DNA from: Planctomycetota bacterium
Lineage (GTDB): Bacteria; Planctomycetota; JAJSAM01; JAJVHW01
DNA length: 64,000 nt
Reading direction: 5' to 3'
Assembly (NCBI GenBank): GCA_965248445.1
Contig: CBDFJG010000002.1
Coordinates: 32,001 to 96,000, forward strand
Below, one piece after another: positions 22,121 to 44,078 of the stretch. The position numbers and the translations under genes were made by a program. Position 1 is the first letter of the stretch. Every line of letters starts with the position of its first letter. The notes below the pieces were generated by a model, which saw only the letters and a program-made list of their open reading frames with translations, was not told where the DNA came from and searched no databases.

Positions 22121-22969
22121 GTGCGCGCCGACGTGTCCGACACCGAACGCCGGCTGAAGTACCGCCGCTTCAATCTGCGGCTCGTCAACTCGTGCACGGA
22201 CGCCGAAGCGTGCGCGCTCGTGGACCTCGCTCTGGGCGCGTCGGGCGACCGTGTCGGCGAGATCCGCAGGCGGCCGGGGACGGCCCGGCCTGCAGACGGC
22301 GAGCGGCCGCCGCGGGTGTACGTGAAGGCGGAGTTTCGCCGCCCGACGCAGCCGCTCGGGCGGCGCATACGTCGCGCACGGGCGTTCGCAGAGGGCGAGG
22401 GCTATCGCGCGTTCGCAGCCGCGGGACTCGCCGTGCCGGAGCTGCTCATGTTCGGCGAGCAGCCGCGCTGGCTCATGAGGGGTGGCGCCATCGTCGCAAC
22501 GGTCAAACTCCCGGGCCAGAACGCGGCGCATACGTACATCGAGACGCAGGACGACGAGATCATCCTCGACGTCGCACGGATGCTGGCCGCGATCCACCGG
22601 CGCGACCTCGTCCACGGCGACGCCGTGATCCGGAACTTCGTGCGTGTGGACCGCCGCATCTACGTCATGGACTTTCCGAGCTGGGGCGACTTCTCCCGCA
22701 AGGGCGCAGAGATCGACTTGGCAAGACTCATCGGCTCGGCACGTGTCCGCGGCCTCGGCGACAACGGCGCCCTGGCCGTGCTCGACACGTACGTGACCAC
22801 GTGGCCGGACGCCGTCCGCGCACATATCGTCGGGTTCCAGGGCCGCGTGCTCTCAGAGGCAACAAGGTACGCCGACTACATAGTGGAGCGCGACCGCACA
22901 CGCACCGCACGGCACGCGCGGTTGCGCGCAAGGCTCAAGCCGTCCGAGCGCAAGGGAGACGCGCGCTAG
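22121..22969 (+). CDS. Kdo/WaaP/InaA-like kinase
   Basis: 'VYVKAE', 'RAFAE', 'GLAVPE', 'HRRDLVHGDAVIRNF', 'VMDF'. Confidence 0.7.
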   Translation: MRADVSDTERRLKYRRFNLRLVNSCTDAEACALVDLALGASGDRVGEIRRRPGTARPADGERPPRVYVKAEFRRPTQPLGRRIRRARAFAEGEGYRAFAAAGLAVPELLMFGEQPRWLMRGGAIVATVKLPGQNAAHTYIETQDDEIILDVARMLAAIHRRDLVHGDAVIRNFVRVDRRIYVMDFPSWGDFSRKGAEIDLARLIGSARVRGLGDNGALAVLDTYVTTWPDAVRAHIVGFQGRVLSEATRYADYIVERDRTRTARHARLRARLKPSERKGDAR

Positions 22970-24057
22970 CCCCTGACCGCGCGAAGGGCCTTCCGCGTCA
23001 TCGACGAGACGCCGAAGTCACGCAGGTCGTGGCTGCGGACCCACGCGGTGCCGCTGCCGTCTTCCGCCACGTGCGCCGCACCGAGCGGCGCCTCGTGCAC
23101 GTGCACCGTGATGCGTCGATTGGTGATGGTGTGCCGGAAGCTGCCGCTGGGCTCCGCGGACACGTCCACCGCACGGCCGACCGCTGTGGCGATGCGGTCC
23201 CGGAGCGACGCGACGTCGCCGTCCTCGGACGTCGTCGGGAGTTCCCACATCCCGGAGAGCAGCGTTCCATCCGGACGCTGCACGAGCAGGAATCGATCAC
23301 CATGCGTCACGAACGCCATGTGCAGAGTGACCTCGCGCGTGGGCGCCTTCGATTTGCGTCGCGGAAGCTCGGCCGTCATTCCGGCACGGTGCGCCATGCA
23401 ACTGCGCCGCCATGGGCACTCGTTGCAGCGCGGTTCGCGCGGCGTGCAGACGAGCGCACCGAGCTCCATCACCGCCTGGTTCCAGTCGGCCGCTCGCAGA
23501 CCCTCCGGCGGCTCCATCGCGGCGGGATCTTCGCCCACGAGCGCCGTCACCAACCGGCGAGACGCCTCGGCGAGAGTGCGCTTCCGTGCGGCCGACGGCT
23601 CGCGGTCGTCAAGCAGCAGGCGACACAGCACGCGCTCCACGTTGCCGTCGACGACGGGCACCGCTGCGTCGTACGCGATGGATGCCACGGCTGCGGCGGT
23701 GTACGGACCGACTCCCGGGAGCGTCTTCAGCGCGTCCGGGTCCGCGGGAACGACGCCGTCGTGTAGCGCAACGATCTGTTGCGCCGAGGCGTGGAGCGCA
23801 CGGGCGCGGCGGTAGTACCCGAGGCCCGACCACGCCGCGAGCACGTCATCGACATCTGCCGCTGCCAGGTCCGCGACGGACGGCCACCGGACGATCCACC
23901 GCTCGAAGTACGGCAGCGCAACGTCCACCCGTGTCTGTTGCAACATCATCTCGCTCACGAGCACGTGGTACGGGTCGCGCGTCGTCCGCCACGGAAGCTC
24001 TCGCTTGTTCCGGTCGTACCAGCGCAGCAGGCGGGTTCGTAGGGACAGGACGCGCAC
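22966..24057 (-). CDS. mutY: A/G-specific adenine glycosylase
   Basis: 'RELPWR', 'VSEMMLQQT', 'WSGLGYY', HhH-GPD 'LPGVGPYT...VDGNV', Fe-S 'CTPREPRCNECPWRRSC', NUDIX-like C-terminus. Start uncertain. Confidence 0.93.
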   Translation of the reverse strand: MRVLSLRTRLLRWYDRNKRELPWRTTRDPYHVLVSEMMLQQTRVDVALPYFERWIVRWPSVADLAAADVDDVLAAWSGLGYYRRARALHASAQQIVALHDGVVPADPDALKTLPGVGPYTAAAVASIAYDAAVPVVDGNVERVLCRLLLDDREPSAARKRTLAEASRRLVTALVGEDPAAMEPPEGLRAADWNQAVMELGALVCTPREPRCNECPWRRSCMAHRAGMTAELPRRKSKAPTREVTLHMAFVTHGDRFLLVQRPDGTLLSGMWELPTTSEDGDVASLRDRIATAVGRAVDVSAEPSGSFRHTITNRRITVHVHEAPLGAAHVAEDGSGTAWVRSHDLRDFGVSSMTRKALRAVRG

Positions 24058-24092: not shown

Positions 24093-24428
24093 TCAGCCGC
24101 CACCCGCGGTCTGCGATGCCGCCACCAGGTACAGCGTGACGAGTTGCTTGGCCCTCGCGTTCAGCTTCGCGCGTTGCGCCATGTCCTCAACGTAGTCGGG
24201 CCAATCGCTCGGTGACTCGGACGACGGCAGGGGCAGGTCGTGGCAATGGCCGCAACGGGCCTCGAAGTACTGGCGCCCGGCGGTGGCGCCCTCGAAGTCG
24301 CGCGTATCGACCGTGTCGCTCGTGCCGCTGCCGCCGTTGGTGCCGCTGCTGCCGCTGCTGGTCGCGCAGGCGGCGACGAGGCAGAGGACGCCGAGGAGTG
24401 CAAGCGAACGAGCAGTCATGACGGTCAC
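24093..24428 (-). CDS. Small mono-haem c-type cytochrome lipoprotein
   Basis: Lipobox 'LVAAC', S/G/T linker, 'CGHCH', distal 'W...V..M'. Confidence 0.8.
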   Translation of the reverse strand: MTVMTARSLALLGVLCLVAACATSSGSSGTNGGSGTSDTVDTRDFEGATAGRQYFEARCGHCHDLPLPSSESPSDWPDYVEDMAQRAKLNARAKQLVTLYLVAASQTAGGG

Positions 24429-25678
24429 CTCGGGGGCAAGTGCGAGAACAGAGTGCTCTTCTCGCGCTCGTAGAGCACGCGCCCGCTCACGATCGTGACG
24501 TCGGCCATCAACCGGTAGTCGAACGGATCGCCCTGATAGATCACGATGTCTGCGTCCTTGCCGGCCTCGAGCGAACCGATGCGGTCCTCGACGCCGGCCG
24601 CCTCAGCAGCGGTCAGAGTGATCGCTCGCAGTGCAGCGTCGCGACTGGCGCCACCACGGATCGCGAACGCGCCCTCGACGGGATACGTCAACAGGTCGCG
24701 CCCGGCGATGCCGTTGAGCGAGATGCCCGATCCGCCGCCGCCGAACCCGCCGGGCGGAAGGATGCAGAACGACGCACCCGCCTTCTCGAGGGTTGCGACG
24801 GCGTCGATGCGCGAGCCACTCTCGCCTTCCATTCCCGGCCGCGGCCAGCGGCGCTGACGCGGCTGCACGATCGCGATGGCGCCAGCGGCGGCGATCTCCT
24901 CGGGCATGGTCCACGCTTCGGTCGCGTTCGTCAGGACGAGCCGCAAGTCGTACTCGCGCGCCAGTTCGAGAGCGCCCCGGATGTCGCGCTTCGTCGAGGC
25001 GGAGATGCGCACCGGCACCTTGCGCTCGAGCGCCGCGATCAGCGTTCCGCTTCCCGGCTGACGGCCCTTCTTGCCGCCGCGGATCCACTTGCGCGCGCTC
25101 GCTAGTGTCTCGCGCAGAGAAGCGCGGGTCATGCCGGACTGCCCGGCCCAACGCACATCGAGCGCGGCGGGCTCCTTGACGATCATCAGCTCGGGCGCGA
25201 GGTACGCGGGCTTGACCACGGCATTGGTGTCGCTGTACGGACTGCGCGACCGGCCGGAGGCGACGTACGCGGTGATGCCCGCCGACAGCGCCAGTTCGCA
25301 GTACGTGCTGTCTGCCTCCAGGCACTGCGAGAACTTCTCGCCCTTTCGCGGACGCCCGCGCCGAATGCCGAAGTTGTTGCCCTGCGGCGCGACGAATCCG
25401 GGCAGGACCCACTTGCCCGTCGCATCGACGATGTTCGCGCCCTCGGGGATACGCAGATCGACTCCCACTGCCTCGATCTTGCCGTCCCGGCAGAGCACGG
25501 TCCCGCGCCGCAGGACGCGGCCGGTGCCGGTGTGCACCTCGCCGCCGACGATCGCGAGCACGTCCTCGCCGCCGACGGGCCGGCGGGACTCGCGCTCCTG
25601 GGCCGTCAACGAAGACGAGGCCACGGCGGCCGCCGCAAGCGCCGTGAGTGCGAGGAGCAGGTTGCGACGGACGTTCAC
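24425..25678 (-). CDS. Exported amidohydrolase-fold protein 8 (metal ligands degenerate)
   Basis: 'DATGKWVLPGF-VAPQ' (no HxH); 'RIGSLEAGKDADIVI..GDP'; signal peptide 'VRRNLLL'. Confidence 0.85.
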   Translation of the reverse strand: MNVRRNLLLALTALAAAAVASSSLTAQERESRRPVGGEDVLAIVGGEVHTGTGRVLRRGTVLCRDGKIEAVGVDLRIPEGANIVDATGKWVLPGFVAPQGNNFGIRRGRPRKGEKFSQCLEADSTYCELALSAGITAYVASGRSRSPYSDTNAVVKPAYLAPELMIVKEPAALDVRWAGQSGMTRASLRETLASARKWIRGGKKGRQPGSGTLIAALERKVPVRISASTKRDIRGALELAREYDLRLVLTNATEAWTMPEEIAAAGAIAIVQPRQRRWPRPGMEGESGSRIDAVATLEKAGASFCILPPGGFGGGGSGISLNGIAGRDLLTYPVEGAFAIRGGASRDAALRAITLTAAEAAGVEDRIGSLEAGKDADIVIYQGDPFDYRLMADVTIVSGRVLYEREKSTLFSHLPPR

Positions 25679-26907
25679 GGGGTCTCCTCCACCGTCACAC
25701 CGTCGATCCACGTGCGCAGCAGGCGCGTCGTAGGAAGCAAGGGATCACCCGAATAGAGCTGCAGGTCGGCGCGGCGGCCGGTCTCGACGGTGCCGCAGTC
25801 CTCGCCCATCCCCAGCATGGTCGCCGGTCCGACGGTGGCGGCGCGCAACGCATCCCGGCTGCCGAAGCCTGCCTCCGCGGTGACCGCCAGGTAGTGAGGA
25901 AACGAACGCAGTCCGTCGCGTGAGTCGTTCCACGGGAGCAGCACGACGCGCAGTCCCGCGTTCCGCAGCATCACGGCGGGGCAGATCGTGAGATCCGTCC
26001 CGGGCCAGGAAGCCGTGCCGACGCGGATCACGCAAGTGGCGCCGAGGTCCGCGAGCTCCGCTGCGGCGTTGTACGCATCGCCGGAGAGCAGCGCGTAGAG
26101 CCGCAGCTTCTCGCCGCGCACCCGCTCGTCGGCCAGCGCCGCGGTGAGCGCGGACGCATCGGCCGCGTCGCTGATCTCACACAGCAGCGCCGTCTCTCCT
26201 TCGAGCACGCGGCGGAACGCCGCAGCGTCCTCCTTGCTCTTCGGCTCGGCGGGCTCCTTGGGCGCGTCCTTCTTGGCCTTTTCGGCCGCGGCCTTGTCCT
26301 TCTCCCACTTCGCGTGCGCCTTCTTCCACTTCTCGGTGGCATCGAGTTCCTTGCGCGCGGCGGCGAGCTTGCCGCCCAGCGTTTTCGCGAAACGCGGACC
26401 GGGTTCGGCGGTCACGCGCAGGAACGCGTGCTCGGAGCGGAGCATCGTGTCGACGTCCTCCGCCGCGGTCCGGACGGCCACGCCCTCGCCGCCGACGATC
26501 CCGCGACCGGGCAGCAACCCGAGTGTTGCGAAGCCGCTGCCCGCCGCGTAGCGGTTCGCGGGGTTCCACGGATCGAGATCGTGCAGGGCCGTCCCGGTGT
26601 CGCCGCCGCTCCCGTTACCGCGAAGGCCGATGCGCGACGCGGCGTGGACGAACGACGGCATCAAGACCTTGCCCGACGCGTCGATGGTCTCGACACCCTT
26701 CGGGATCACGACGTCGGCACGCGGCCCGACGGCCTCGATGCGGCCCTTCTTCACGACGACGACACCGTCCGGGACGTCGTCCCCAGCCGCGGTGATCACG
26801 CGCGCCCCGACGATGGCGAAGTCGGCGGGCGGCGCGGTCTCGTCGGCGCACACGGGTGACGCGAGCGCGAGAAGCAGCAGGGCGGCAGACAGGCGTGTCA
26901 GAACCAC
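25675..26907 (-). CDS. Exported amidohydrolase-fold protein 7 (degenerate)
   Basis: 'DASGKVLMPSFVHAAS'; 'GTVETGRRADL..YSGDP'; signal peptide. Confidence 0.85.
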   Translation of the reverse strand: MVLTRLSAALLLLALASPVCADETAPPADFAIVGARVITAAGDDVPDGVVVVKKGRIEAVGPRADVVIPKGVETIDASGKVLMPSFVHAASRIGLRGNGSGGDTGTALHDLDPWNPANRYAAGSGFATLGLLPGRGIVGGEGVAVRTAAEDVDTMLRSEHAFLRVTAEPGPRFAKTLGGKLAAARKELDATEKWKKAHAKWEKDKAAAEKAKKDAPKEPAEPKSKEDAAAFRRVLEGETALLCEISDAADASALTAALADERVRGEKLRLYALLSGDAYNAAAELADLGATCVIRVGTASWPGTDLTICPAVMLRNAGLRVVLLPWNDSRDGLRSFPHYLAVTAEAGFGSRDALRAATVGPATMLGMGEDCGTVETGRRADLQLYSGDPLLPTTRLLRTWIDGVTVEETP

Positions 26908-28148
26908 CGGCGGTCCACTCCCTCTGCGTAGGCTTCCTTGCCGTTGATCAGCACGAACAGCACCCGCGAACGCGGGTCGAGCGGCGGGCCGTCGCGTATG
27001 ACGATGTCCGCGTCCTTACCCGCTTCGAGCGATCCGAGCCGGTCTCCCATGCCGACCTGCTCGGCCGGCCGGATCGAGAGTGCCTCGAGGGCCTTCTTCT
27101 CGCTGAGACCGAAGCGCACCGCCATCGACGCTTGCGTCGTCAGCTCCTCGGCGGGAACGACGGGGCAGTCGGTGTTCAGGGACAGGTCGGCGCCCGCTTC
27201 ATCCCAGAGTGTCGGGATACCGAGCACGCGACGGGTCTCGCGCTCGTAGTGGATGAGCCGCGGACCGACGTTCACGGGCAGATCGCCACCGACGATGACG
27301 TCGGCCGCCTTGTACGAGTCGAACGTCGCGTGCGTGACGATGACGTCGAGCCCCATCTCGTCCTTGAGGATGCGCTTCGTCGCCTCGACGCCGTTCACCC
27401 AGACCGTGTGCACGATCACCGGGAAGTCCTTCGCGAACAGCCCGCGGAAGTTGTCGAGACGCGCGTCGAACTGCGGCGGCTCGGACGTCTTCTCCCGTTC
27501 CCACCGGCTCCAGGACTCGGCGTAGTCCCGCGCCTCCTCGAGACGCTCCCGAATCAGGTAGTTCATGCCCATGCGCGAGCGGCCGACGTCGCCGGCGCGT
27601 CGCTCGGGGTTGCCGAGTTGCGCGATCTTGAGCGCGCCGGGGAAGCGGATCGTCATCTCTTCGACGGTCTTACCCGCCGTCTTGACAAGCGTGCCGAAGC
27701 CCGACATGTTCGTGCCGGAACCGGGGATGAAGAGCATCGTCGTGGTGCCGCCCTGACGCGCGGCCTGCAACTGCCAGTTCTCCGGCACGATCGTGTCGAG
27801 GTTCCGCAGCTCGGGATTGGTCGGATAGACCATGTCGTTCAGGTCCGTGCCGGCGACGTGCGCATGCAGTTCGACCCAGCCCGGCGTGGCCCAGCCGTTC
27901 TCGAACTCCTTGACCGCGTAGCCGGCGGGGATCTCGATGTCAGCCGCCTTGCCGACTCTCTCGATCTTCCCGTCCTTGACGAGGATGACGCCGTCGTCGA
28001 TGGGTGCGCCGACAACGGGTACGACGCGCTGCACGCGGATCGCGTACCGCGTCGGTTCCGCATGAACCGCGTCGTCGGCGGCGTGCACCGGCGCAGGGAT
28101 CACGAATGCAGCGACCACCAGCATCGAGAGGATCCGATCAGCGCGCAT
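26898..28148 (-). CDS. Exported amidohydrolase 6 (apparently intact metal site)
   Basis: 'PGWVELHAH', 'ALKIA', 'VIVH', 'IVTH', 'NTDCP', 'GSLEAGKDADIVI'; signal peptide. Confidence 0.9.
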   Translation of the reverse strand: MRADRILSMLVVAAFVIPAPVHAADDAVHAEPTRYAIRVQRVVPVVGAPIDDGVILVKDGKIERVGKAADIEIPAGYAVKEFENGWATPGWVELHAHVAGTDLNDMVYPTNPELRNLDTIVPENWQLQAARQGGTTTMLFIPGSGTNMSGFGTLVKTAGKTVEEMTIRFPGALKIAQLGNPERRAGDVGRSRMGMNYLIRERLEEARDYAESWSRWEREKTSEPPQFDARLDNFRGLFAKDFPVIVHTVWVNGVEATKRILKDEMGLDVIVTHATFDSYKAADVIVGGDLPVNVGPRLIHYERETRRVLGIPTLWDEAGADLSLNTDCPVVPAEELTTQASMAVRFGLSEKKALEALSIRPAEQVGMGDRLGSLEAGKDADIVIRDGPPLDPRSRVLFVLINGKEAYAEGVDRRWF

Positions 28149-30735
28149 CGTCGCTCACCTCCTCTCCGCCGACGAACACGCCGCGCACCCCGGCGCCCTT
28201 CGTGAAGGGTGCGCCGGAGAGCAGAACCAAGTCGGCGTCCTTGCCGGCCTCGAGCGTCCCGATCCGGTCCGACACTCCGAGCAGCTTCGCTGCGTCTCCG
28301 GTGACGAGGCGCACCGCAGCCGACGGCGAGAGGCCGTGTCGCACAGCGAAGGCGAGCAGCTCCGGGATGTCCGCTCCGCCGAGGTAGGACTCGCTCGCAA
28401 GCGCCGACGAGACGTCGCTCAGCGCGAGTTCGCGTAGGAGGTTCGTCGTTTCTCCGCGCTCCTGGGTGAGGATCTGCGCGCCTGCGATCACGCCGACATT
28501 CGCTTTCGCGAGTCCGTCGAACATCCGCCGCGCGTCGCCGCCCCCGAGGATGACGATGTCGAGCTTCTCCTTCTTCACCAGCACGCGCAGCGCCGTGCGC
28601 AGTTCGGTGACGTGGTTCGCGCGCACGACGAGGGGCGCCTTCTTGTCGAGTACCGCGGCCCAGCCCTCGAGTGCGTCGTCCTTGGACGGCTTCTTCGGCT
28701 CCGTCAGCTCCTTTTCCGGCTTCTTGGCGCTCTTCTTCGGGTCCTTCTTGTCAGCGCCCTTCTTGTCGGCGCCCTTCTTCTCTTCTGGCGGCGCACCGTC
28801 CTTCTTCTCGTCACCGTCCCTCTTCTCGTCGCCATCCTTCTTCTCGTCGCCGCTCTTCTTCTGGTCACCGTCCTTCTTCTGATCTGGCTTTTTCTCTTCC
28901 TCCTTCGCCTTCTCCTCGGCCTTCTTCTTCTCGGCGGCGGCCTTCTTCTTCTTCCACTCCTCGTACGCCTTCAGGTCCTTCTCGTACTTCTCGAACTTCG
29001 CGCGATAGTCCTTCGCCTTCTTGACGGCTGCGGTGATCTGTTTCACCGCCGCCTGAAGATCACTCTCATCGCGCAGGCGGAAGACCATCCCCGCGTCCTT
29101 CTTCACGACGCGCGTTCCCGGCCAGGCGCCCTGCGTCTTGATCACGGAGGCGCGGCCGGCGATCCGGTCGTTGCCGGTCGGCGCGCAGAGGATCGACGTG
29201 ACACCGGCTTCGGCCAGCAGCGCGAGCGCCGGATCGCCGGGATCCACCGCGTCCGACGATGCCATCGACGTTGCGAGTGACGACGCCGGCTTCCCATCCG
29301 ATCCGGCGAGTCCGGCGGACGAGTGCGCGTCGATGAAGCCCGGCACGACAGCGCCATCCCCGAGATCAACGATGCGCGCACCTGGCGGCACGCCGACGGT
29401 GGGCCCGACTTCGACAATGCGCCCGCCCTCGAACGCGACCTCGCCGGGCGCGAGCACGCGGCCGTCTCCGATGTGCACCTGCGCCGCGCGGATCACCACG
29501 GTGGTCCCGGCGGCGACCCGCTGCCAGACGATCCGGCCGTCCACGATCGTGCTGGTCGGCACCGCCCGCAGATCACCGGGGAGTCCGGACAGGAGCACGA
29601 GGTCCGCGTCCTTGCCGACAGCGATCGAACCGACACGTCCCGCGACCCCTGCGATCGCAGCGGCCTCTGACGTCACGGCGGAGAGCGCCACGTGTTCGTT
29701 CAGTCCGGCCTGAACGGAAGATGCCATCGCGAAAAGGAGTTCGTGCAGCGCGTCGTCACGCTCTGTCGTGAGAGCGAAGCGGACGCCGGCGTCGGCCAGG
29801 GCCTTTCCGCTCGCCCGCGAACGCACGCGGAACCGCTCGGCGTCCACGTCGGTCGACGATGCGAGGCCTCCCGGCGTGCCGGCCCATGTGAGGACGACGG
29901 GAACGCCGCTCGCCGCGATGCGCTTCGCGTCACGGCGCGCGGCCAGAGCCCCGACGATCACCGCATCCAAGCCGCTGTCGTCGAGCAGGTCGAGCGCCGC
30001 CGCAACGTCTCCTGCGGTGCGCGCGCCGAGGAAGAGGCGTGCGTCTCCGCTTGCGACGTCACGGAGGGGAGCCGCGCCCTCGCGTGCGGCATCGATCAGG
30101 CGGCGCAGCACGAGCGAGGAGCCGGCGCGCGTCGCGGGGAGTTGCGGCCGATGCGGCGGCAGGGGATCGTCCGTCGCGTCGGGCAGATCAGGTGCAGCGA
30201 GCGTCGCGGGAGGCGTCTGCACGGCGTCGCCCAGGCCGGCAACCACACCGGCATCCGCCAAGAGCGTCCGAGACGCCTCGTCGGCGCCCGCAGTCTTCAC
30301 GACCGCCGCGCGGCCGGAGACGACCTGAGTCACACCCGGCGCCAGCAACACCGTGGTGACGCCGCCCGCGAGCAAGCGCGCTTCGTCCCTCGCGAAGTCG
30401 TAGCCGTCCAGTGCACGAACGTCCGGCGTCACGTTCTCCGGGTGCCGGCCCTTCGCGCTCGTGTGTTGCGAGAACGCTGCGACCAGGCCGGGGATCACGC
30501 TGCCCGAAGGGCCCGCGTCGAGGACGCGCGCATCGGCCGGCACCGGCATGTCGCCGCCGACCTGCGTGATCTTCCCGCCCTGCACGACGACCACGCCCGG
30601 GCGGAAGACCTGCCCGGTGCCGGTGTAGACCGCGCCGGCGCGCACGACGAGCATCTCGTCCTGTGCCCGGGCCGAATCTCCGGGCAGGACCGCCAGCGCC
30701 GTGGCGACGAGTGCGGCCGCGAGTGCGCGTCTCAT
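28138..30735 (-). CDS. Exported double-domain amidohydrolase-fold protein 5 with Lys-rich insert
   Basis: Two domains ('PGLVAAFSQH'; 'PGFIDAHSS'), each ending 'GKDADLVLLSG'. Confidence 0.87.
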   Translation of the reverse strand: MRRALAAALVATALAVLPGDSARAQDEMLVVRAGAVYTGTGQVFRPGVVVVQGGKITQVGGDMPVPADARVLDAGPSGSVIPGLVAAFSQHTSAKGRHPENVTPDVRALDGYDFARDEARLLAGGVTTVLLAPGVTQVVSGRAAVVKTAGADEASRTLLADAGVVAGLGDAVQTPPATLAAPDLPDATDDPLPPHRPQLPATRAGSSLVLRRLIDAAREGAAPLRDVASGDARLFLGARTAGDVAAALDLLDDSGLDAVIVGALAARRDAKRIAASGVPVVLTWAGTPGGLASSTDVDAERFRVRSRASGKALADAGVRFALTTERDDALHELLFAMASSVQAGLNEHVALSAVTSEAAAIAGVAGRVGSIAVGKDADLVLLSGLPGDLRAVPTSTIVDGRIVWQRVAAGTTVVIRAAQVHIGDGRVLAPGEVAFEGGRIVEVGPTVGVPPGARIVDLGDGAVVPGFIDAHSSAGLAGSDGKPASSLATSMASSDAVDPGDPALALLAEAGVTSILCAPTGNDRIAGRASVIKTQGAWPGTRVVKKDAGMVFRLRDESDLQAAVKQITAAVKKAKDYRAKFEKYEKDLKAYEEWKKKKAAAEKKKAEEKAKEEEKKPDQKKDGDQKKSGDEKKDGDEKRDGDEKKDGAPPEEKKGADKKGADKKDPKKSAKKPEKELTEPKKPSKDDALEGWAAVLDKKAPLVVRANHVTELRTALRVLVKKEKLDIVILGGGDARRMFDGLAKANVGVIAGAQILTQERGETTNLLRELALSDVSSALASESYLGGADIPELLAFAVRHGLSPSAAVRLVTGDAAKLLGVSDRIGTLEAGKDADLVLLSGAPFTKGAGVRGVFVGGEEVSDDAR
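28801..28880. repeat. Imperfect 18-bp coding tandem repeat (D-G-D-E-K-K-like units)
   Basis: CTTCTTCTCGTCACCGTC-like unit about 4.5 times; encodes 'KKDGDQKKSGDEKKDGDEKRDGDEKK'. Confidence 0.75.
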
Positions 30736-31979
30736 CGTTCCTTCTCCCGGCCGACCTGGATGCCCTCTAGCAGCCGCTTCAGCTTGCGGTCCTTTCCGCG
30801 CTCGTAGATCAACTCGCCCTCGAGGAACACCTGATCGACGTGGTTCGCGGTGTCGAGCGGATCGCCGGACCAGATCACGAGGTTCGCGTCCTTACCCGGT
30901 GCGATGGAGCCCACGCGATCCTCCACGCCAAGCACACGCGCCGGATTCAGCGTGACCGCGCGGAGCGCTTCCTCGCGGGTGAGGCCCTGCGCGACGGCAA
31001 CGGCCGCCTGGTACCAGAGCGACCTCATGCCGTAGGGCGACGCCTCGTTCGCCTGGATGACGACGGGAACGCCCGCAGCCTTGCACTCGCGTGCCAGCTC
31101 CCGGCGGCTCTCTTCACCAGTCTCAGCGTCGCGCTCGACCGGCTCGATGTCGTCGGGGAGCACGCACGCCGTGCCCTTCTGCTGAATCAGCGGGAAGGCG
31201 CGTCGGGCGCTCGGACCGAGGGTCAGGAACCCGGTCAGCGAGAACTCCTTCATCAGGTTCAGCGCGTTGCGCACGTCCACCGCTTCGTCGCATGCGAGCA
31301 CCGCTGGGAGCGTTCCGTCCAGAAGGGAGGCGAGCGCCTCCGCGCGCGGGCTGCGCGTTGGGTTGTCCGGGTTGCCGGAGACGCGTCGCGACTCGCCTGC
31401 CCGCGCATCCGTCAATGCTCGCCGCAGTTCGGCGACCTGCGCCATGCGGCTCGTGCCGCGGCGCGGGGAGAGAGCGAGCTTCAGGCCCGCCTCGCGCCGC
31501 ACGATCATCTCCTCCGCCGTACGCCCGAGGGGCTTCAGCACGAGGCCCTGCCCGCCGATGAGCGTCGCGTTCCCCGGCACGACGAACACCGTCGTCACAC
31601 CATCCCGGATCAGATTCTCGAAGTACGGCGAGAGCGGGTCGAGCCCGTCGAGCACGGATACAAAGGGCGTGTTCGGCGCCTGTTCGTTCCCGCGATCGAG
31701 GCCGCCCTGCGAGTGGCTCTCGACCATGCCGGGAAGCAGCCAGGCGTCCTTGCGATCGACGACCTCCGCGTCCCATGGATTGACGTAGCCGCCCCGCACG
31801 TCCTCGATGCGTCCCGAGCGGACGTACACGGACGCGCCGTCGGTGTACGTCTCTCCCTCGACGGTCACGACCGTGCCGGCATGCAGGACGAACGTGTCGT
31901 CCCCCGCGCCCGCGGTCGTCGCCGCCGTGGCGACGAGAGCCGCGATCAGCGCGAGAGAACATCTCTGCGACGATTTCAT
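30732..31979 (-). CDS. Exported amidohydrolase-fold protein 4 (partly degenerate)
   Basis: 'LLPGMVESHSQ' (HxQ); 'VGSIAPGKDANLVIWSGDP'; start 'MKSSQRCSLAL'. Confidence 0.87.
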   Translation of the reverse strand: MKSSQRCSLALIAALVATAATTAGAGDDTFVLHAGTVVTVEGETYTDGASVYVRSGRIEDVRGGYVNPWDAEVVDRKDAWLLPGMVESHSQGGLDRGNEQAPNTPFVSVLDGLDPLSPYFENLIRDGVTTVFVVPGNATLIGGQGLVLKPLGRTAEEMIVRREAGLKLALSPRRGTSRMAQVAELRRALTDARAGESRRVSGNPDNPTRSPRAEALASLLDGTLPAVLACDEAVDVRNALNLMKEFSLTGFLTLGPSARRAFPLIQQKGTACVLPDDIEPVERDAETGEESRRELARECKAAGVPVVIQANEASPYGMRSLWYQAAVAVAQGLTREEALRAVTLNPARVLGVEDRVGSIAPGKDANLVIWSGDPLDTANHVDQVFLEGELIYERGKDRKLKRLLEGIQVGREKER

Positions 31980-33199
31980 CGTTTGTCCTTCCGGGTCCTG
32001 TCGAACACGACGCTCCCGTCGATCACGACCATGAGCATCCGCGAAGTCGGCTTGAGCGGATGCCCGCTCCACAGCACGACGTCCGCATGGGCGCCGTCCG
32101 CGATCCGTCCGCGGTCCTTCAGACCACACAGATCCGCGGGGATGCTGGTGAGCGCGGCGAGCGCTTCGTCCCGCGAGAGTCCGTACCGGACGGCGAACAT
32201 TCCCTGCTCGCGCAGCCACCGGGCGCCGCTGTTGCCCGCGGTCAGCGCGACCTTCACGCCGGCCTCGTGCAGCATGGTCGCGTTCGTCAGCGCTGTGTCC
32301 GTTCTGTCCGGGCCGGCACCGGTTCGGATGTCGGGGAACGGTCCGACGACCACGGGGATCCCGCGCTTGGCCAGTTCGTCGCGGCGCAGATACGCCTCCT
32401 CCGCGTTGTCGAACGCGACCTGCATGTCGACCTCGTCCGCCAGCCGCAGCACGGCGTTGACATCTTGCATGCGATGCACGGACACGCGCAGAGGTCGGCG
32501 CCCGGCGATGACATCCTGGTACGGCGTGAGATCCGCGGCGTTCGGTGGCTCCTGCACGCCCTTGGCGGCCAGGAACGTCTGGCGGAGCAGCCAGACGACT
32601 CCCATGCGGGTGGTCGGACGGCGCGCGTAGATCGACGTGGTCGGCCCGAAGCGCGGCGGAAAGTTGCCGGTCGATGGGAACCGCGACAGCGCCGCGTGCA
32701 GCGACGACGGCGCCGAACGGATCGGAACGGCCCGCCCGGTCTTCGACCACGAGTGGTGTGCCTGCGAGAGGCCACCCACGACGTTTCGCGAGCCCGGCAC
32801 GAGGACGATCGTCGTGCAGCCCTCCCGCGCACCCTCGCGAAATGCCTGGTGCCGCGGGTTGGCGAGATCCCGCGCGCTGACGAGAGCCGTCATCTCGCGC
32901 GTGATCTCCGCTTCCTGTGACGCGTACCCAAGCCGGCCCGACGACTCGATGAACCCAGGCGCGAGCACGGCGCCGGGAATGCTGATCGTCCTCGCCCCGT
33001 CGGGTGCGCTGCCTCCGATGCGGCCGTTCGCGACCACGACGGTCGCCGAGTCGGTTGCGCCGCCGACACCGTCGAGCACCGTCACGTCGCTGAACACGAG
33101 CGACGCACGTTCGCTGTCCTGTGCGTGGACGTTCGCACCGGCGAACGTGAGTCCGCCGATGGCGAGGACGGCCAGCGCCAGCGTGCGACCGGCGCTCAT
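31976..33199 (-). CDS. Exported amidohydrolase-fold protein 3 (degenerate)
   Basis: 'LAPGFIESSGRLG'; 'GRIADGAHADVVLWSG'; signal peptide 'MSAGRTLALAVL'. Confidence 0.85.
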   Translation of the reverse strand: MSAGRTLALAVLAIGGLTFAGANVHAQDSERASLVFSDVTVLDGVGGATDSATVVVANGRIGGSAPDGARTISIPGAVLAPGFIESSGRLGYASQEAEITREMTALVSARDLANPRHQAFREGAREGCTTIVLVPGSRNVVGGLSQAHHSWSKTGRAVPIRSAPSSLHAALSRFPSTGNFPPRFGPTTSIYARRPTTRMGVVWLLRQTFLAAKGVQEPPNAADLTPYQDVIAGRRPLRVSVHRMQDVNAVLRLADEVDMQVAFDNAEEAYLRRDELAKRGIPVVVGPFPDIRTGAGPDRTDTALTNATMLHEAGVKVALTAGNSGARWLREQGMFAVRYGLSRDEALAALTSIPADLCGLKDRGRIADGAHADVVLWSGHPLKPTSRMLMVVIDGSVVFDRTRKDKR

Positions 33200-34392
33200 C
33201 GCGCGTCCTCCCGGGCGGCATCCTGAACGATGCGTCCACCGGACAGGTGCAGCAGAACGCGCGAGCGTGGCTCCCACGGCTCGCCGTCCATGACGAGCAA
33301 GTCGGCGCGCAGGCCCTCGGCAACGCGGCCGACACGGTGCGCGACGCCCAGCGAGCGCGCGGCGACGTTCGTCACGGACGGCACGGCGGAATCTTCCGGA
33401 AGGCCGGCCGCTACCGCCAGCGCGAGGGCATTGCGGAGCGAGTCGGCCGGACGGGCGGGTGCGCCCGACGTGATGGCGACTGCGACGCCGGCTCGCGCCA
33501 GGCGGCCGGGCAACGCGAGCACGTACAACGCGTCCTCGGCGTCGAGCCCGCTCACGATGCACGGCGCCCCGATCCCGGCCACGCCCGCGGGATCGTCGGC
33601 GGCGCGCGTCAGGCCCACGAACGTCGGACGAAGGCCGCGAGGCGCGAGAGTCTCGGCCGCGATCTGCGCCGACTCCGGTGTGTCGACGTACACGAGCACC
33701 TGCTCTCGCCAAAGCGCGGACATCACGCGCAGCGCCCCCTCGCGCACCGGCGGGTCGATCTCGGTAGGAGTCCGCCACGGCCGGCCGGCGAAGGCCGCCG
33801 TGAGTACCGCGCGGGCACCCGCGAGCGTCGCGGGGACACGGCTCGCGGAGAGCGCGGGGGAGCGGAAGGAGAACACCTGGGGTCCGCGCCGGGTCAGCAG
33901 CGTGGCCGTGCCGTCCGCGTCGATCGACGCAGCGGCGGCGCGACCGGCGACGAGGTTGGCCGGTGCCGGCAGGAGCCCGACGGTCGTCGTGCCGCCGCGC
34001 AGCGCAGCGCGCAGCGAGCGGTGTTCGCCGTCGAACGCGTCCGCGGCGCGCACGCCGGGAGTCAGCGCATCCGCGGACTCGGCGGCGGCGCCGTCCAGCC
34101 CGAGGGCCGTCACCGCGTCCACGAGACCGGGCAGCGCCACTCCGTTCGCGATCGTGCGGACGCGGACGCCCTTCGGCGGCGCATCGGTGCCGGCCGTGAC
34201 GAAGCGATCACCCTCGACGAGGATGTACGCGTTCTCGATCACCTGGCCATCGCCGACGTGCAGCTTCGCGACGCGATAGGCACGCCGCATGTCGATCGCG
34301 CCGTTCTCCGCGCGGGCTGTGGCTCCGTGCACGACGAGCAGGCAGATGCACGTGAGCGCCCCGAGCCCGAGCAGACGGCTACTCGATCGCAC
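33196..34392 (-). CDS. Exported amidohydrolase-fold protein 2 (degenerate)
   Basis: 'LPGLVDAVTALG'; 'VGRVAEGLRADLLVMDGEP'; GTG start. Confidence 0.83.
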   Translation of the reverse strand: MRSSSRLLGLGALTCICLLVVHGATARAENGAIDMRRAYRVAKLHVGDGQVIENAYILVEGDRFVTAGTDAPPKGVRVRTIANGVALPGLVDAVTALGLDGAAAESADALTPGVRAADAFDGEHRSLRAALRGGTTTVGLLPAPANLVAGRAAAASIDADGTATLLTRRGPQVFSFRSPALSASRVPATLAGARAVLTAAFAGRPWRTPTEIDPPVREGALRVMSALWREQVLVYVDTPESAQIAAETLAPRGLRPTFVGLTRAADDPAGVAGIGAPCIVSGLDAEDALYVLALPGRLARAGVAVAITSGAPARPADSLRNALALAVAAGLPEDSAVPSVTNVAARSLGVAHRVGRVAEGLRADLLVMDGEPWEPRSRVLLHLSGGRIVQDAAREDAR

Positions 34393-35803
34393 GGTGTACC
34401 TCACGTCCGGCGACGAACACGCGCAGTGCGCGCGTGCCGATCGCGAGCGGATCGCCGTTCCAGACGACGATGTCCGCGCGCTTGCCCTCGTCGATCGATC
34501 CCAGCTCCTTGTCCACGCCGGCGGACTCCGCCGCCCAGAGTGTGATCCCGCGCAGCGCATCTGCGGGGTCCATGCCGGTCCCGACCTCGTGCGCCGCGTA
34601 GAGCCGCAGGAAACGGGTTGCTCCCGACCCTCCGGTCGCGAGCGCCGGCCGCAGGCCCGCGGCGACGAGCGACGCCCCCGCGCCCGCTGGACGGCGTGCA
34701 ATCGGACGGCGCTCGTCGGTCTCTTGCACGCTCAGATTCGTCAGGATGACCCTGGCTCCGGCCTTCTTGACCGCGTCCGCCCGCGTGACGAGGCCTTCGC
34801 CGCCGGCCAGAATCAGGTCGAGGCCGAACTCCTGGCCCATCGCCAGCGCCGCGTCGGTGTTCGGTGAGAGCTCTGCGCGGAACAGCGTGGCACGCGTGGC
34901 GGGCTGCGCGTCCTTGCCGTCACCGTGGGACATAGCCGTCAGCAGGATGTCCGTCGAGTCGTCGTCGCGAACCGTGCTGGGCGGCTTGGGCGACTTCTTC
35001 GGCTTCTCGTACTCCTTCGCGCGCCCCATTGCCTTGTACGCGGCTTCGCGCCACGCGGCGCGCTGCTCCGGAGTCCACGAGCTCATCCGCGCGGCGAGTT
35101 CTGCCGGGATGAGCAGACGCTCTGCATCCGTGTCATCGTCAGCGAGGCGTTTCTCCTCGTACTCCGCGATCTCGCGCCCGTAGCGCTCGAGCGCCTCGCG
35201 CCGTTCGACCGCGCGACGCAGCGTGGTGCGCAGACTCGCAGCCCGCGACGCGCCGGGCGCGCCGCCGGCCACCGTGCGCGTCGAGATCGAGAGTACGAGC
35301 GAGCCCTCCACGGACGCCGGTGCCTCCCCGGATGCGCCATCCCCAAGGGGCACGGTTGAGACCACGGCGGCCAGTCCGGCGACGAGTTGGTCGCGCGCGC
35401 CGCCCAGTTGCAGCGAGGTGACCCCGTTCGCGAGCGCCGTGCCGACGCGGGCGTCCCACGGATCGAAGGCCGCGGCGGCCCCCACGTACGCGCCGGGGAT
35501 CCGTGCGGTCGAGTCGGCGCCGTCGAGACCGAGTGTGCTGTCCGCATCGATCAGCCCGGGCGTCACGACCAGCCCCGAGCAATCGACACGCACGGCGCCC
35601 TCGGGCACGTCGACGGTGGCGCCGACGGCGCGGATGCGATCCCCCTCGATCACGACGGTGCCCGCGGGAATCACGTCCCCGGACGCCGTGTGGATCTCGC
35701 CACCCACCAGCGCGATCACCCCATCTTCGGCATGCGCCGCCGGCACCCTCAGCACGCACGGGAGCGCGAGGCACACGAGGGCGAGAAGAGGCAGTCGGCG
35801 CAT
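34379..35803 (-). CDS. Exported amidohydrolase-fold protein 1 (degenerate)
   Basis: 'VTPGLIDADSTLG'; 'LGSIDEGKRADIVVWNGDP'; signal peptide 'MRRLPLLALV'. Confidence 0.85.
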   Translation of the reverse strand: MRRLPLLALVCLALPCVLRVPAAHAEDGVIALVGGEIHTASGDVIPAGTVVIEGDRIRAVGATVDVPEGAVRVDCSGLVVTPGLIDADSTLGLDGADSTARIPGAYVGAAAAFDPWDARVGTALANGVTSLQLGGARDQLVAGLAAVVSTVPLGDGASGEAPASVEGSLVLSISTRTVAGGAPGASRAASLRTTLRRAVERREALERYGREIAEYEEKRLADDDTDAERLLIPAELAARMSSWTPEQRAAWREAAYKAMGRAKEYEKPKKSPKPPSTVRDDDSTDILLTAMSHGDGKDAQPATRATLFRAELSPNTDAALAMGQEFGLDLILAGGEGLVTRADAVKKAGARVILTNLSVQETDERRPIARRPAGAGASLVAAGLRPALATGGSGATRFLRLYAAHEVGTGMDPADALRGITLWAAESAGVDKELGSIDEGKRADIVVWNGDPLAIGTRALRVFVAGREVHRAIE

Positions 35804-35954: not shown

Positions 35955-38774
35955 TCAGTCGGCTGGACGCAAGACGACCACCAGAAGCCCGTCATCACTG
36001 GCCGCGAACGGATCGTAGCGCGTGACCAGGACGATGACATCGCGAGGGGCGGCAACCACGTGGAGCGTCTCCGCGATACCTTCGACCTCGGGCGCCAGGA
36101 TCGGGACTTCCCCGAGCGGAGTGTCGCGTTCGTGGACACCGGAATCGCGCAACCGCACGCTCCGGACGTGAAGTTGAAGGGAGTGCCGGCCTCGCACGGT
36201 GCGGCCGAACGCGCGCATCGCGACTGCAAGTCCGGTCTCGACGACCAGCGACTCCGCGCGACCCCACGCCTCTGGGTCCCCGGGTCGGGAGTCGAGCTCG
36301 CTGCGATACGGATACCGCACGACGTGCCCGACGTGGTCCCGGCCGGTGGGCGGCGCGGCCAGCCGGTTCTGGACCAGCGGAATCCGCCGACCACGCGACG
36401 CCAGCAGCCGGTCGATCGCTCCCTGTCGCGACCGATCGGAGACGACCGTGTGCGCGACCACACCCGTCCCGCTCCTTCCCAGCGTGGGAACGAGGCGCAC
36501 GAGCTGCGCCGCGTCGGTCGCGTTGAGCGAGTGCACGGCGACTCCGAGCGTCTGCAACCCGCGCGTTGCCGCGATGCGCTTCAGGAAGGTCTCCACGAGG
36601 GAGTGCGCTTCGTCCGGCCCGACCACGCGCACACGATCGCCTCGCAATTCGACGGACGCGGCATTCACGGCCACTTCACGCAGCAGTGCCAGAAGCGCCG
36701 TCTCGCGCGCCGGGAACGGATCGCCCGCCGCCAGCAGCAGCGGCTCGCCCAGCTCGTCGAGGGATGCGACCGCGTGCGGAATGCGGTGCTCGGCGAATCG
36801 CATCCCGGCCGGCGCCTCGGGAGGAGTCTCTCCCCCCAGTTCAGGCGTCGGCAGCGGCGCCAGCCCCTCCGCGCGTCCGACGCGCACGAGGGCCGTGAAC
36901 GACTCACTGGCATCGGCGGGATCCAGTAGGCCCGTGACGAGCAGCGCTCCGCCGCGGGCAAGCGTTGCGCCGGCCGACACGGACGCGCGCAGCGGAGACG
37001 TGGTGGACAGCGCGCGGGGATTCCATTCGGTCGTGAGCGCGACCGCGGCGCCGGGCGGGTCCGATGCGACGGCCAGGACGTCGAGTGCCAGCACACGGCT
37101 GCCTTCGCGTGTCGTGAGCCGGAACGGTCGGAGGTGCGTCGCGCGGAACGTCGCACGTCCAAGAGTCTCTCCCGGCAGGTCGCCGTCCTCGCCCAGCAGG
37201 TCGGCCACGTCCGTCGCGGGAATGACGGCGCCTTCGCCCCCACCGGCGATCGCGAACGTCTCGATCCCGTCGGCACGAAGACGATCGAGCAGCTCCGACG
37301 GCGGTTCCCGCAGGACCGCGATCTCGACCTCCGCGGACCGCAGACCGGCGACGGCGGCGCGGGTCAGACGGCTCCCGAGCCGCGTGTGCGTCGCAGCAGG
37401 AGCAACGACCACGAGTGTCCGACCAACCAGGTCGGCAGCGGCTTCCTCGGAGGACAGCGCGGCGCGCTCGTCTCCGATCAGCCATTCCGCCACGAGCGGT
37501 GCCGGCTTCATGCCGCTTGCGCGCACGGTCCACCCGCGCGTCGGCGCCGAAAGCGGAACCGGCGGCAGTGCCGGCCGCGCGGACGGCATCGCAGGCGCGA
37601 GGTCGTGGAATCGGAGACCGAGCCCGCCGGCGACCTCCGTTCCGGCCTCCTCGAGGATCGCGAGCAGCGCCTGGCTCCAGCGCGCAGTGAGCGCGGAGGG
37701 TGGAGGTGGTGCTTGCGGTGCACGGGGCACACCCGCGGCGCCCGTGCGTCGCAGTCCGCGCAGGATCTCGTCTCGCAGACTCGCCGGTGCGCGCCGCGAC
37801 GCCTCCTCGGTGTCCACGAGGGCGAGCGCGCGCTCGAGAAGCGGCGCGGCGGTGGTCGGGTCCGAGTCATCGAGCGCCCGGCGAGCGCGCGAGACCAGCG
37901 TTTCGGCCTCGGCCGTCACGCGGGCGGCGCGCACCTCTTGCGCCAGCGCGAGGATCTCGCGGACGCGCAGATACAACTGCTCACGGTCGCCGAAAGGCGC
38001 CGCGACGCGACCGAGCAGGAGCTTCGCCTCTGCGTTCTCGGGATCGGCCTCGAGCGCGCGGTAGAGCGCGGAGCGCGCTTCGGCGAAGCGCCCCTCCCGG
38101 TGGAGCAGGCGGGCGAGGTTCGAGTTGATGAGCGAGTCGCGCTGTTCCTTGCGGCGCTGCTCGGCGACTTCTCTGCGCCGCAGCGCGAGGTACTCCTCCG
38201 GGCGCAAGTCGCCGGGCGGAAGCTCCGACTTCAACCGCTTGATCTCCTCGTCCTTCCCGCGCAACTCGATCGCGAGGTCGTCGAGGTCTTCGCGCGCGCC
38301 CTTCTCCGCCTTGATCGCCTGCTCGAGTCGAAGCCTCAGTTGTTCGGCCTCGTGTTCGAGTTCCCTCAGCGTCTCGGGATCCGCCGTTGGGACCGGGGAC
38401 TGCGCTCCCTCCGTCTCCACGGGCGGATGCGCGACGTCGAGATCCCGCACGACCGCCTTTGCCAGAAGTACGACCTCGTCCGGCACCGCGTCCGCGTCGG
38501 CCGGCGTCAACCAAGGCCGCGCGAGCAAGAGCGCCTTGCCGGTGTCGCCGGACCGTGCCAGGCAGCCCGCCGCTCGGATCTCCGCCCGCGCGCGGTCTGC
38601 TACACCCCCCGCCGCTGCGGCCGCCTGCTGGTAGAGCTCCGCGGCCGCGACGAGGTCGCCGAGCGAGCGCTCCGCGATCTCGGCCCGTCGCAACAGAACG
38701 CCGTGGTCGTCGGCCGCGACGGCACCCGGGGAGGCGCAGAACAGCACAGCCAGCAGAACGAGGGTTCGGCGCAT
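35955..38774 (-). CDS. Large exported protein: TPR/coiled-coil N-half, divergent secretin-like C-half
   Basis: Signal peptide; TPR-like 'ALEADPENAEA'; N3-like and beta-rich segments. The secretin call is by pattern only. Confidence 0.55.
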   Translation of the reverse strand: MRRTLVLLAVLFCASPGAVAADDHGVLLRRAEIAERSLGDLVAAAELYQQAAAAAGGVADRARAEIRAAGCLARSGDTGKALLLARPWLTPADADAVPDEVVLLAKAVVRDLDVAHPPVETEGAQSPVPTADPETLRELEHEAEQLRLRLEQAIKAEKGAREDLDDLAIELRGKDEEIKRLKSELPPGDLRPEEYLALRRREVAEQRRKEQRDSLINSNLARLLHREGRFAEARSALYRALEADPENAEAKLLLGRVAAPFGDREQLYLRVREILALAQEVRAARVTAEAETLVSRARRALDDSDPTTAAPLLERALALVDTEEASRRAPASLRDEILRGLRRTGAAGVPRAPQAPPPPSALTARWSQALLAILEEAGTEVAGGLGLRFHDLAPAMPSARPALPPVPLSAPTRGWTVRASGMKPAPLVAEWLIGDERAALSSEEAAADLVGRTLVVVAPAATHTRLGSRLTRAAVAGLRSAEVEIAVLREPPSELLDRLRADGIETFAIAGGGEGAVIPATDVADLLGEDGDLPGETLGRATFRATHLRPFRLTTREGSRVLALDVLAVASDPPGAAVALTTEWNPRALSTTSPLRASVSAGATLARGGALLVTGLLDPADASESFTALVRVGRAEGLAPLPTPELGGETPPEAPAGMRFAEHRIPHAVASLDELGEPLLLAAGDPFPARETALLALLREVAVNAASVELRGDRVRVVGPDEAHSLVETFLKRIAATRGLQTLGVAVHSLNATDAAQLVRLVPTLGRSGTGVVAHTVVSDRSRQGAIDRLLASRGRRIPLVQNRLAAPPTGRDHVGHVVRYPYRSELDSRPGDPEAWGRAESLVVETGLAVAMRAFGRTVRGRHSLQLHVRSVRLRDSGVHERDTPLGEVPILAPEVEGIAETLHVVAAPRDVIVLVTRYDPFAASDDGLLVVVLRPAD

Positions 38775-38927
38775 GCCGAGAGGTTGCCACACCGAGCGGC
38801 AGCGGTCACCCGGGGTTTCGCCCCGGGTTTCACGCCTCGGGCCCCGGCCCGCCGTGTTTCTCGCCCCCGGGCCCCCGCCCGCCCTCAGGGGAAGGACGCG
38901 GCGAGGCGCCAACCGGTTACATCCGCC

Positions 38928-43600: not shown

Positions 43601-44078
43601 AGTCGCTCCCGAGCACGCGCGACCACGACGTGAGCAGGCGTCGCGTCGGCACGTCTTGGGACTTCTTGAGGCGCGGGAACGTCTTGCGCACCACCTGCAC
43701 GGCCTTGGCGCGCAGGCGGACCGCCTGCGCCGCGGCCTCCGTCTCCGGCCCGTCGAGGGGAAGCCCGCGGGCGGGCTTCCAGCGGCCGTTCTCGTCCACC
43801 GCCGCACGCGCGAGCGCGAGCGTCCAGACCGCGCGCGCATCGGCGTCTTCGGCGTCCAGAGTCAGCAACTCGCCGAGCGCCTCGGCGGATGCGGGCGCGA
43901 GGGCCAACGCCTCCTCGAACAGGCGGCGCGCGCCATCCGTGTCGCCCGCGGTCAGCGCGCTGCGGCCCGAGGCGAGCACGCGGTCGGACTCGGCGTCGAG
44001 CCCGCCGGCGCGGGTCGCGGTCGCGCCACTGAGCAGGAGAGAGGCGGTGGCGACGACGAGGAAGAGCCGGCGCCCCAT
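40644..44078 (-). CDS. Large exported gluzincin-like metallopeptidase with TPR-like and beta-sandwich domains
   Basis: 'LIHELTH...PAWLAEGRA' (HExxH plus downstream E); signal peptide. Confidence 0.7.
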   Translation of the reverse strand: MGRRLFLVVATASLLLSGATATRAGGLDAESDRVLASGRSALTAGDTDGARRLFEEALALAPASAEALGELLTLDAEDADARAVWTLALARAAVDENGRWKPARGLPLDGPETEAAAQAVRLRAKAVQVVRKTFPRLKKSQDVPTRRLLTSWSRVLGSDCPTLVAGHDAAVDGAHAGPDEKTVLTALEGVMRRAAADGDWPLALRAGLLLRGIDRQGHEEEAAAAPPSKSARAAADTIERAREHLAAAPPRERDPPAEGEEPATGTEPRVHTLEELEAIAGDQVAGWNAAHRSWEHPGIAVSPGGLYRIETTAGWNTLRHVTSVVEDLHARIAGWFGSDPFDGRPGLIRVVLDHAELEGEGAPFWWAGGFQSGDRTTVLARFRSGDALDGTLIHELTHRFDHAAFGGLPAWLAEGRAVFVETGGWGRGLGRVVVEAADWMKLWETHDARYHDEDNLLALLGGKPKDYRDNYHSGYSLWLFLTRFRGFDGNQEGAFVFADRVSAYLDGFAKRSAPDSRAWFEKHFVDGKTGRPNTLEGFRELFRQFIREGGSGAEPGAAWKQAWQRRVAELRVEDRASRTQLAPRDLWTTDTAPRPGDRDRHDPPARGLDHARRAARVLAAAGRPRAALAAIDWAVAVDDVDPSELQEAVDLHDTHKGPSAWVYRALLHRLAPHEHPAPEGGAGGTLAAAHRAVAAYLTHLAKWSDAAHDKKRLRLASALRADHDRIAAICGIAAHRGLPAAGAKDKPVPVPEAAGPPAAPWRPAERSVVAGEMVEERWAPIDSKPGIPWHIDGAGNIVLGQAKTDDTTGGLIRDAGMRRMFVRSSEWLDDAYTLRTRIRFLSSFADGRIVFGKTSRDRGFSVRFRAGDWDYSTGKKDAVPPLQSAGIHVTDHRPLDRYVSPMVRFVTFEQPRAFLDIEIRVAGPYVVVLLDGEERVSHRRRSGAPIEGYVGFALSRGVVRFEQPRVRRERTIGPDREAMGWSLDAPLRLAQPNTFPWRTIIGRRVEGLPAHPGGTLLLWLPADAGEDSWDAASLMYTLRWFSAQFTGLATSHVTRLAVPASDLASETLEAELRTGEFVPDSVEMHHGHAGLSAVLAEHAKRPGAGPTDVAWVMLDETNVVRSAVSVARIRHARFLARLLAGEPR

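Follow-up and report, generated by a model that had tools for sequence, protein, structure and literature searches.

Why should a bacterium keep eight adjacent genes of a single hydrolase fold when only one of them retains the residues of a metal-dependent active site? This question is raised by a stretch of 64,000 nucleotides from a Planctomycetota bacterium (contig CBDFJG010000002.1, positions 32,001 to 96,000; hereafter, the window), in which an array of eight amidohydrolase-like genes, labeled g1 to g8 in gene order (Table 1), encodes nine domains. The answer that we favor, to which we assign a probability of roughly 0.6, is that the array would specify one exported, ring-shaped particle with ten seats, eight of them dedicated and non-catalytic and two catalytic, the latter both filled by g6 in this genome.

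The first-pass annotation had described eight minus-strand genes carrying nine amidohydrolase domains and overlapping by 4-14 bp, a description borne out by the coordinates of the open reading frames (ORFs), with overlaps of 14, 4, 4, 4, 11, 10 and 4 bp from g1 to g8, and by Pfam, as all eight proteins passed the Amidohydro_1 (PF01979) cut-off and g5 matched it twice. Its readings at the HxH position (DADS, DAVT, ESSG, ESHSQ, AAFSQH / DAHSS, ELHAH, HAAS and APQG) were reproduced as well. The nine domains share only 20-31% pairwise identity, and thus represent old paralogues rather than a recent repeat.

Members of the amidohydrolase superfamily hold two metals at fixed positions of the barrel, namely an HxH motif on strand 1, a lysine on strand 4, histidines on strands 5 and 6, and an aspartate on strand 8. 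In g6 these ligands correspond to H95, H97, K174, H247, H273 and D327, which lie on the expected barrel strands in the structural model and are invariant across 20 aligned g6 proteins; the other eight domains of the window (hereafter, the degenerate or dead domains) retain none to two of the six each, leaving g6 as the sole ligand-complete gene of the array, as first annotated. A ligand census was carried out over all distinct loci, restricted to domains above 330 residues in length and tolerating a shift of one alignment column at four sites. At least five of the six ligands were present in every g6 domain (141/141) and in only 4 of 626 non-g6 domains, one of which has all six. These four are all g2 orthologues (L242, L015, L057 and L237, out of 72; the window g2 is not among them), suggesting that the g2 seat was probably once catalytic, and hence probably a third catalytic seat in the ancestor. 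The annotated "one catalytic member" is therefore accurate for this genome but not across the family, in which g6 is present in one to four copies and g2 is occasionally intact. Alternative metal ligands, proposed at first pass as a check on the degenerate copies, were also searched for in the census, and no degenerate orthogroup displayed a consistent substitute set.

The conservation of the array was assessed across a broad sample. An initial search of 60 relatives yielded strong g6 orthologues across the phylum, and the loci sampled comprised 20 stretches at g6 matches, 20 at weaker matches, 75 and 77 loci from two collection scans, and 60 added stretches (54 of them holding array genes) picked from 301 genomes searched with a g7 alignment; with 5 exact-sequence duplicates removed, 106 loci with array genes were obtained. 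Among these, 58 distinct complete arrays, the window included, represent at least 23 family codes and are all ordered g1-g8; they are not independent observations, since close relatives may remain among them. The named carriers belong to Planctomycetota, among them one genome bin from Gemmataceae and two from Pirellulaceae, and g1-g5 are also present in a bin of Chthonomonadales. Exact look-ups aimed at carriers both named and cultured gave no match (0 of 3). An orthologue-level g7 match was detected in 63 of the 301 sampled Planctomycetota genomes, roughly a fifth. Two genomes carry a divided array: in one, g1-g5 and g6-g8 are located on separate contigs, away from contig ends, and in the second an identical break follows g5, with g7 on another contig, also away from contig ends. 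In a tree of 206 domains every position formed a clade (support 0.94-1.0), with the exception of six domains from the divergent locus L016. Furthermore, non-g6 positions were never duplicated in the 106 loci, g6 alone differing in the number of copies; what looked like a second g3 in L238 turned out to be g2.

The ratio of nonsynonymous to synonymous substitution rates (dN/dS) was below 1 for each degenerate copy over all seven pairs tested (0.24-0.60), which indicates purifying selection. The one same-genus pair gave 0.18 for g6, with degenerate copies at 0.24-0.34, and in the more distant pairs, whose dS values approach saturation, degenerate copies were at 0.25-0.60. The estimates for degenerate copies are probably too high, because GC content at third codon positions (GC3) is ~0.87. 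The checks on alternative ligands, on order and one-to-one orthology elsewhere, and on relaxed selection all failed to refute the reading of the copies as fixed subunits of a hetero-oligomer, which we consider well supported, though indirectly.

By both sequence and fold, the best match of g6 is by a wide margin 3OOQ, a structural-genomics entry of the PDB for an amidohydrolase of Thermotoga maritima MSB8, to which g6 aligns over its whole length (E 6e-47; next match, 2e-8) and at the His, His, Lys, His, His and Asp positions. The template modelling (TM) score against 3OOQ is 0.80-0.87 for the g6 model and, by target length, 0.80-0.81 for a g5 domain. Together with the PF01979 matches in all eight proteins, these models identify a triose-phosphate isomerase (TIM) barrel with a composite beta-sandwich, and membership in the 3OOQ-like subfamily, presumably cd01309 / Met_dep_hydrolase_C. 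No second gene of this subfamily was found elsewhere in the genome, where only short matches to other amidohydrolases occurred. The 3OOQ entry has ten chains, a count equal to that of eight dead domains plus the two g6 types described below, and it is on this basis that ten seats are proposed. The entry differs from the array in being the product of one gene and a homo-oligomer, whereas the array comprises nine different domains, eight of them without the site. It is listed as dihedral within a set of complexes of 10-30 chains (bioRxiv 10.64898/2026.08.06.736029), and this label, as the preprint lists it, would together with the ten chains imply fivefold dihedral (D5) symmetry.

Simpler relatives of the array were also recovered. 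Of the 20 stretches at weaker matches, 19 contain a live domain beside one or two dead domains, either separate or fused, and one is a singleton; L252, from the later sampling, has three domains fused. In Firmicutes and Actinomycetota a single intact gene per locus is the usual state. This series of singletons, pairs and triplets has the array at its extreme end. Loci with a live and one or two dead 3OOQ-like domains (L021-L040, L240, L243, L244 and L252) often occur several per genome, alongside a long array.

Export was evaluated from the hydropathy of a 10-residue N-terminal stretch, a crude test and not a signal-peptide predictor, albeit one whose controls separate well. A strongly hydrophobic stretch ahead of the first strand is present in 290 of 307 array proteins and 36 of 41 proteins from pair or triplet loci, compared with 6 of 40 internal g5b domains and none of the 34 stand-alone homologues with enough upstream frame. 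All eight N-termini in the window contain such a stretch, with a mean hydropathy of 2.5-3.0, in agreement with the signal-like peptides annotated on each protein. Given this distribution, the division into live and dead partners goes along with predicted export.

The number of catalytic seats was addressed through the copies of g6. In the 79 arrays where both g5b and g7 were seen, g6 is present in one, two, three or four copies (54, 15, 5 and 5 arrays, respectively), and never in more than four. Two g6 types can be told apart by the motif following the third histidine, HTQ or H[TCS]A[GS]. Of the 25 multi-copy arrays, 21 begin their g6 run with an HTQ copy and end it with an H[TCS]A[GS] copy, 4 have copies of a single type, and none shows the two types the other way round. 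In a scaffold tree built from the dead subunits, arrays with both types are spread over three separate clades, while those with three or four copies are confined to one well-supported clade; L193, L194 and L201 share the family code f7 with L019, a member of the latter. First-type copies, with which the window g6 groups, cluster together in a quick tree of 26 proteins with a support of 99 in the Shimodaira-Hasegawa-like approximate likelihood-ratio test (SH-aLRT). The approximately unbiased (AU) test (LG+G4; 5000 replicates, the program advising 10000) rejected sisterhood of the two g6 copies within each lineage (p 0.007, <1e-4 and <1e-4), and monophyly of the last type was not rejected (p 0.15). 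Since both types are old and the test rejects a recent duplication, ten domains were probably present in the ancestral array, and repeated loss of one g6 type from it would be the simplest history.

Contacts between subunits were approached through natural fusions. The two domains of g5 are joined in every array showing both, except L126, by a linker of 6-24 residues from the last strand of g5a to the first strand of g5b. The model of the window g5 has a predicted local distance difference test (pLDDT) score of 87 and a predicted TM (pTM) score of 0.79 over 865 residues, compared with a pTM of 0.84 for the single-domain g6; since a freely moving pair would give about 0.5 by a rough estimate, the model appears to place g5a and g5b rigidly. 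Other true fusions are g1-g2 (L012, L043, L219 and L238), g1-g2-g3 (L233 and three near-identical loci) and g7-g8 (L015). Natural fusions thus link gene-order neighbors only and show that such neighbors tolerate a covalent tether, which is weak evidence for ring order, because adjacent genes fuse most easily in any case. Within the array they are exclusively dead-dead, and live-dead ones occur in loci of the pair or triplet kind. Three further candidates, in L020 (g1-g2), L205 (g4-g5) and L196 (g5-g6), were dropped, as their open frames cross assembly gaps. In an analysis of inter-domain covariation on 53 complete arrays (effective number, ~41), the counts tracked conservation, and the joined pair g5a-g5b was not raised.

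With the integration of these results, we propose a pseudo-D5 decamer that would have derived from a 3OOQ-like homodecamer. Each chain would cross the inner membrane by means of its own signal peptide and assemble with fixed neighbors, plausibly in gene order, an arrangement from which no seat could be dropped even though most have lost catalysis. The g6 subunit would bind two metals through its His-His-Lys-His-His-Asp set, and its chemistry is probably the binuclear-metal hydrolysis of an amide bond, the likeliest substrate being, by the nearest characterized folds, a small peptide or an N-acyl compound. Extra g6 copies would act as exchangeable catalytic isoforms, and g4, g3 and g8, in which many polar positions are conserved, may have a further part in shaping or gating the entrance to the active sites. 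The closest structures whose titles name a function (3MTW, 3BE7, 3N2C and 8IHQ), which comprise the Cc2672 carboxypeptidase, Xaa-Pro dipeptidases and ochratoxin amidohydrolases, show ~16-18% identity to g6 and a TM score of ~0.56, and g6 scores far below the NCBIfam cut-offs (61.7 vs 500 for NF051886, Xaa-Pro dipeptidase; 41.8 vs 298 for TIGR01224, imidazolonepropionase), so a substrate is not transferable from them.

Several points weigh against the ten-seat particle. The majority of bracketed arrays (54/79), that of the window included, have nine domains, which requires g6 to occupy two different seats. The D5 symmetry of 3OOQ is a deduction from its chain count and the label given in the preprint, and not the assembly record of the entry, and the confidence of the g5 model may reflect likeness to 3OOQ, an entry possibly seen by AlphaFold. 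A scheme of five fixed dimers (g1-g2, g3-g4, g5a-g5b, g6-g6 and g7-g8) failed on the 60 new stretches, in which one lineage has g2-g3 fused. The substrate is a guess, since no flanking genes are conserved across families, only within families or orders. Finally, three or four g6 copies and the three-domain modules found elsewhere fit twelve seats (8+4) as well or better.

This last point introduces the first alternative, according to which the proteins form hetero-oligomers of another kind, be it a particle with twelve seats (eight dead domains and four g6) or several smaller complexes in which g6 associates with various dead partners. It would account for the ceiling of four g6 copies and for the common one-live-one-dead gene pairs, and the two-dead-one-live modules (L031, L037-L040 and L252) have a 2:1 ratio, like 8:4, that cannot tile ten seats symmetrically. 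We nevertheless regard it as unlikely, given that three or four copies occur in one clade only while the two-type state is found in three, that the nearest structure has ten chains, and that dead-dead fusions with very short linkers would be unneeded for simple pairs of g6 and a partner.

A second alternative takes the dead copies as independent periplasmic binding proteins, sensors or enzymes of another chemistry, co-regulated with g6 but unassembled. Each gene does encode its own signal-like peptide, the g2 site is intact or nearly so in the few orthologues mentioned above, and g4 orthologues keep the first histidine in 67 of 82 cases and the lysine in 69 of 82 (the second histidine in none), along with 21 conserved polar residues, compared with 19 in g8 and 15 in g3. 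However, g1, g2 and g7 conserve only three polar residues each, no orthogroup offers a consistent alternative ligand set, and neither transporters nor receptors are conserved next to the array. Independent proteins should moreover come and go singly, whereas non-g6 positions were never duplicated and their order never changes, all of which makes this explanation improbable. The "substrate-binding panel" put forward at first pass is weakened by the same scarcity of conserved polar residues in g1, g2 and g7 and of conserved transporters. That the array is a relic of tandem duplication, with dead copies decaying or hitch-hiking, is very hard to sustain: these copies do evolve faster than g6 (49-71% vs 73-81% identity to four same-family genomes), but the reading is already largely refuted by the position clades, the dN/dS values and the arrays of at least 23 families, in which reading frames stay open, signal-like peptides are kept and the order is the same; the confident fold of the g5 model also speaks against it.

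The ten-seat particle has its closest parallels in design among eukaryotic machines. Rings in which a homo-oligomer has given way to one paralogue per seat are a textbook feature of such machines, namely CCT/TRiC, the 20S proteasome of eukaryotes and the core of the RNA exosome, and in the latter two most seats are catalytically dead. CCT has eight paralogues (PMC5413064). Outside g6, the array likewise keeps a constant set of paralogues, one copy of each, which have stayed orthologous seat by seat over long times. These complexes have unrelated folds, are eukaryotic and cytosolic, and are not encoded in one collinear operon, so the likeness concerns design only, the assembly of the array being predicted. 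Among bacterial systems, the 2-aminoisobutyrate hydroxylase AibH1H2 has the amidohydrolase fold, and it is not among the sequence or fold matches listed for g6. As described in its report, the heterotetramer combines two kinds of subunit, one holding the dinuclear active site and the other a mononuclear site that may be structural (PMC10401708), and it differs from the array in having two subunit types and Mn/Fe oxygenase chemistry. The metformin hydrolase MetCaCb is a heteromer of two paralogues, each inactive by itself, and only one of them carries the binuclear metal cluster, according to the published account (PMC11271267). The array shares with it the arrangement of adjacent paralogues with a single keeper of the metal site; MetCaCb has a ureohydrolase fold and forms a hexamer of two subunit types, as opposed to the amidohydrolase fold, the nine or ten types and the predicted export of the array. 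Live-dead pairs are thus already known in bacteria (PMC11271267; PMC10401708), and the bacterial examples that we found stop at two subunit types.

If the ten-seat proposal is correct, one operon would encode a bacterial complex built from nine or ten different subunits that share a fold, a design that we have not found described for a bacterial hydrolase. No description of the operon, nor a function for 3OOQ, was found in the literature searched, which did not extend to subscription journals or bioRxiv supplements. Because one-, two-, three- and ten-part versions coexist, adaptive complexity and complexity gained through a neutral ratchet could be told apart by reconstitution. More tentatively, and as somewhat less than an even bet, we suggest a fully asymmetric exported bacterial decamer in which gene order equals ring order: a 3OOQ-like D5 homodecamer would have been split into ten seats, catalysis would have shrunk from at least three seats (g2 and the two g6 types) to one gene here, the catalytic seats would have become exchangeable cassettes, and the forms from singleton to twelve domains would make up a complete natural series. 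The array would also point to a periplasmic hydrolytic activity in a largely uncultured phylum.

Table 1. Genes of the array and neighboring open reading frames, with positions in the window.
Feature	Position	Strand	Length (residues)	Characteristics
g1	34379..35803	-	474	Amidohydrolase fold with no metal ligands; signal-like N-terminus; extended charged insertion past barrel strand 4
g2	33196..34392	-	398	No metal ligands in the window copy
g3	31976..33199	-	407	Degenerate amidohydrolase domain; conserved Arg/Glu-rich residue set
g4	30732..31979	-	415	Best conserved degenerate member; first His and Lys kept, other four ligands lost
g5	28138..30735	-	865	Two degenerate domains, g5a and g5b; linker of ~8 residues; Lys/Asp/Glu-rich loop at ~residues 616-672
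g6	26898..28148	-	416	Sole member with all six binuclear-site ligands; predicted catalytic subunit
g7	25675..26907	-	410	Degenerate amidohydrolase domain
g8	24425..25678	-	417	Degenerate amidohydrolase domain; last gene of the conserved block
ORF upstream of g1	35955-38912	-	985	Signal-like start; tetratricopeptide repeat (TPR) matches
Second TPR-like ORF	40644-44153	-	1169	Signal-like start; weak TPR match; HExxH motif; no NCBIfam match
ORF overlapping g8	24093-24428	-	111	Lipoprotein-like; one CxxCH haem motif
mutY	22966-24057	-		Follows the array

The segment following barrel strand 4 spans 62-272 residues (median 190) in g5b orthologues and 85-209 in those of g1. Many g5b orthologues (e.g., L044:8253-9797 and L072:2670-4382) carry there an insert with a Gly/Trp pattern, in the place of the Lys/Asp/Glu-rich loop of the window, and the inserted segment gave no Pfam match above cut-off in g5b orthologues.

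Regarding the surroundings of the array, a scan for promoters and terminators yielded nothing exceeding shuffled sequences. The 111-residue ORF, which overlaps the g8 stop by 4 bp, had no match across the loci fetched. In 16 loci (e.g., L194:12690-13928), mostly from the lineage with extra g6 copies, g8 is followed by a gene that we take, from its sequence, to be anthranilate-phosphoribosyltransferase-like. A gap of 151 bp separates g1 from the 985-residue ORF upstream, which has the same orientation and whose homologues occupy the same place in L001, L002 and L005 (37-42% identity), other families being devoid of it. Finally, mutY is found after the array both here and in L001-L004, L008 and L010, which represent two families of the order.

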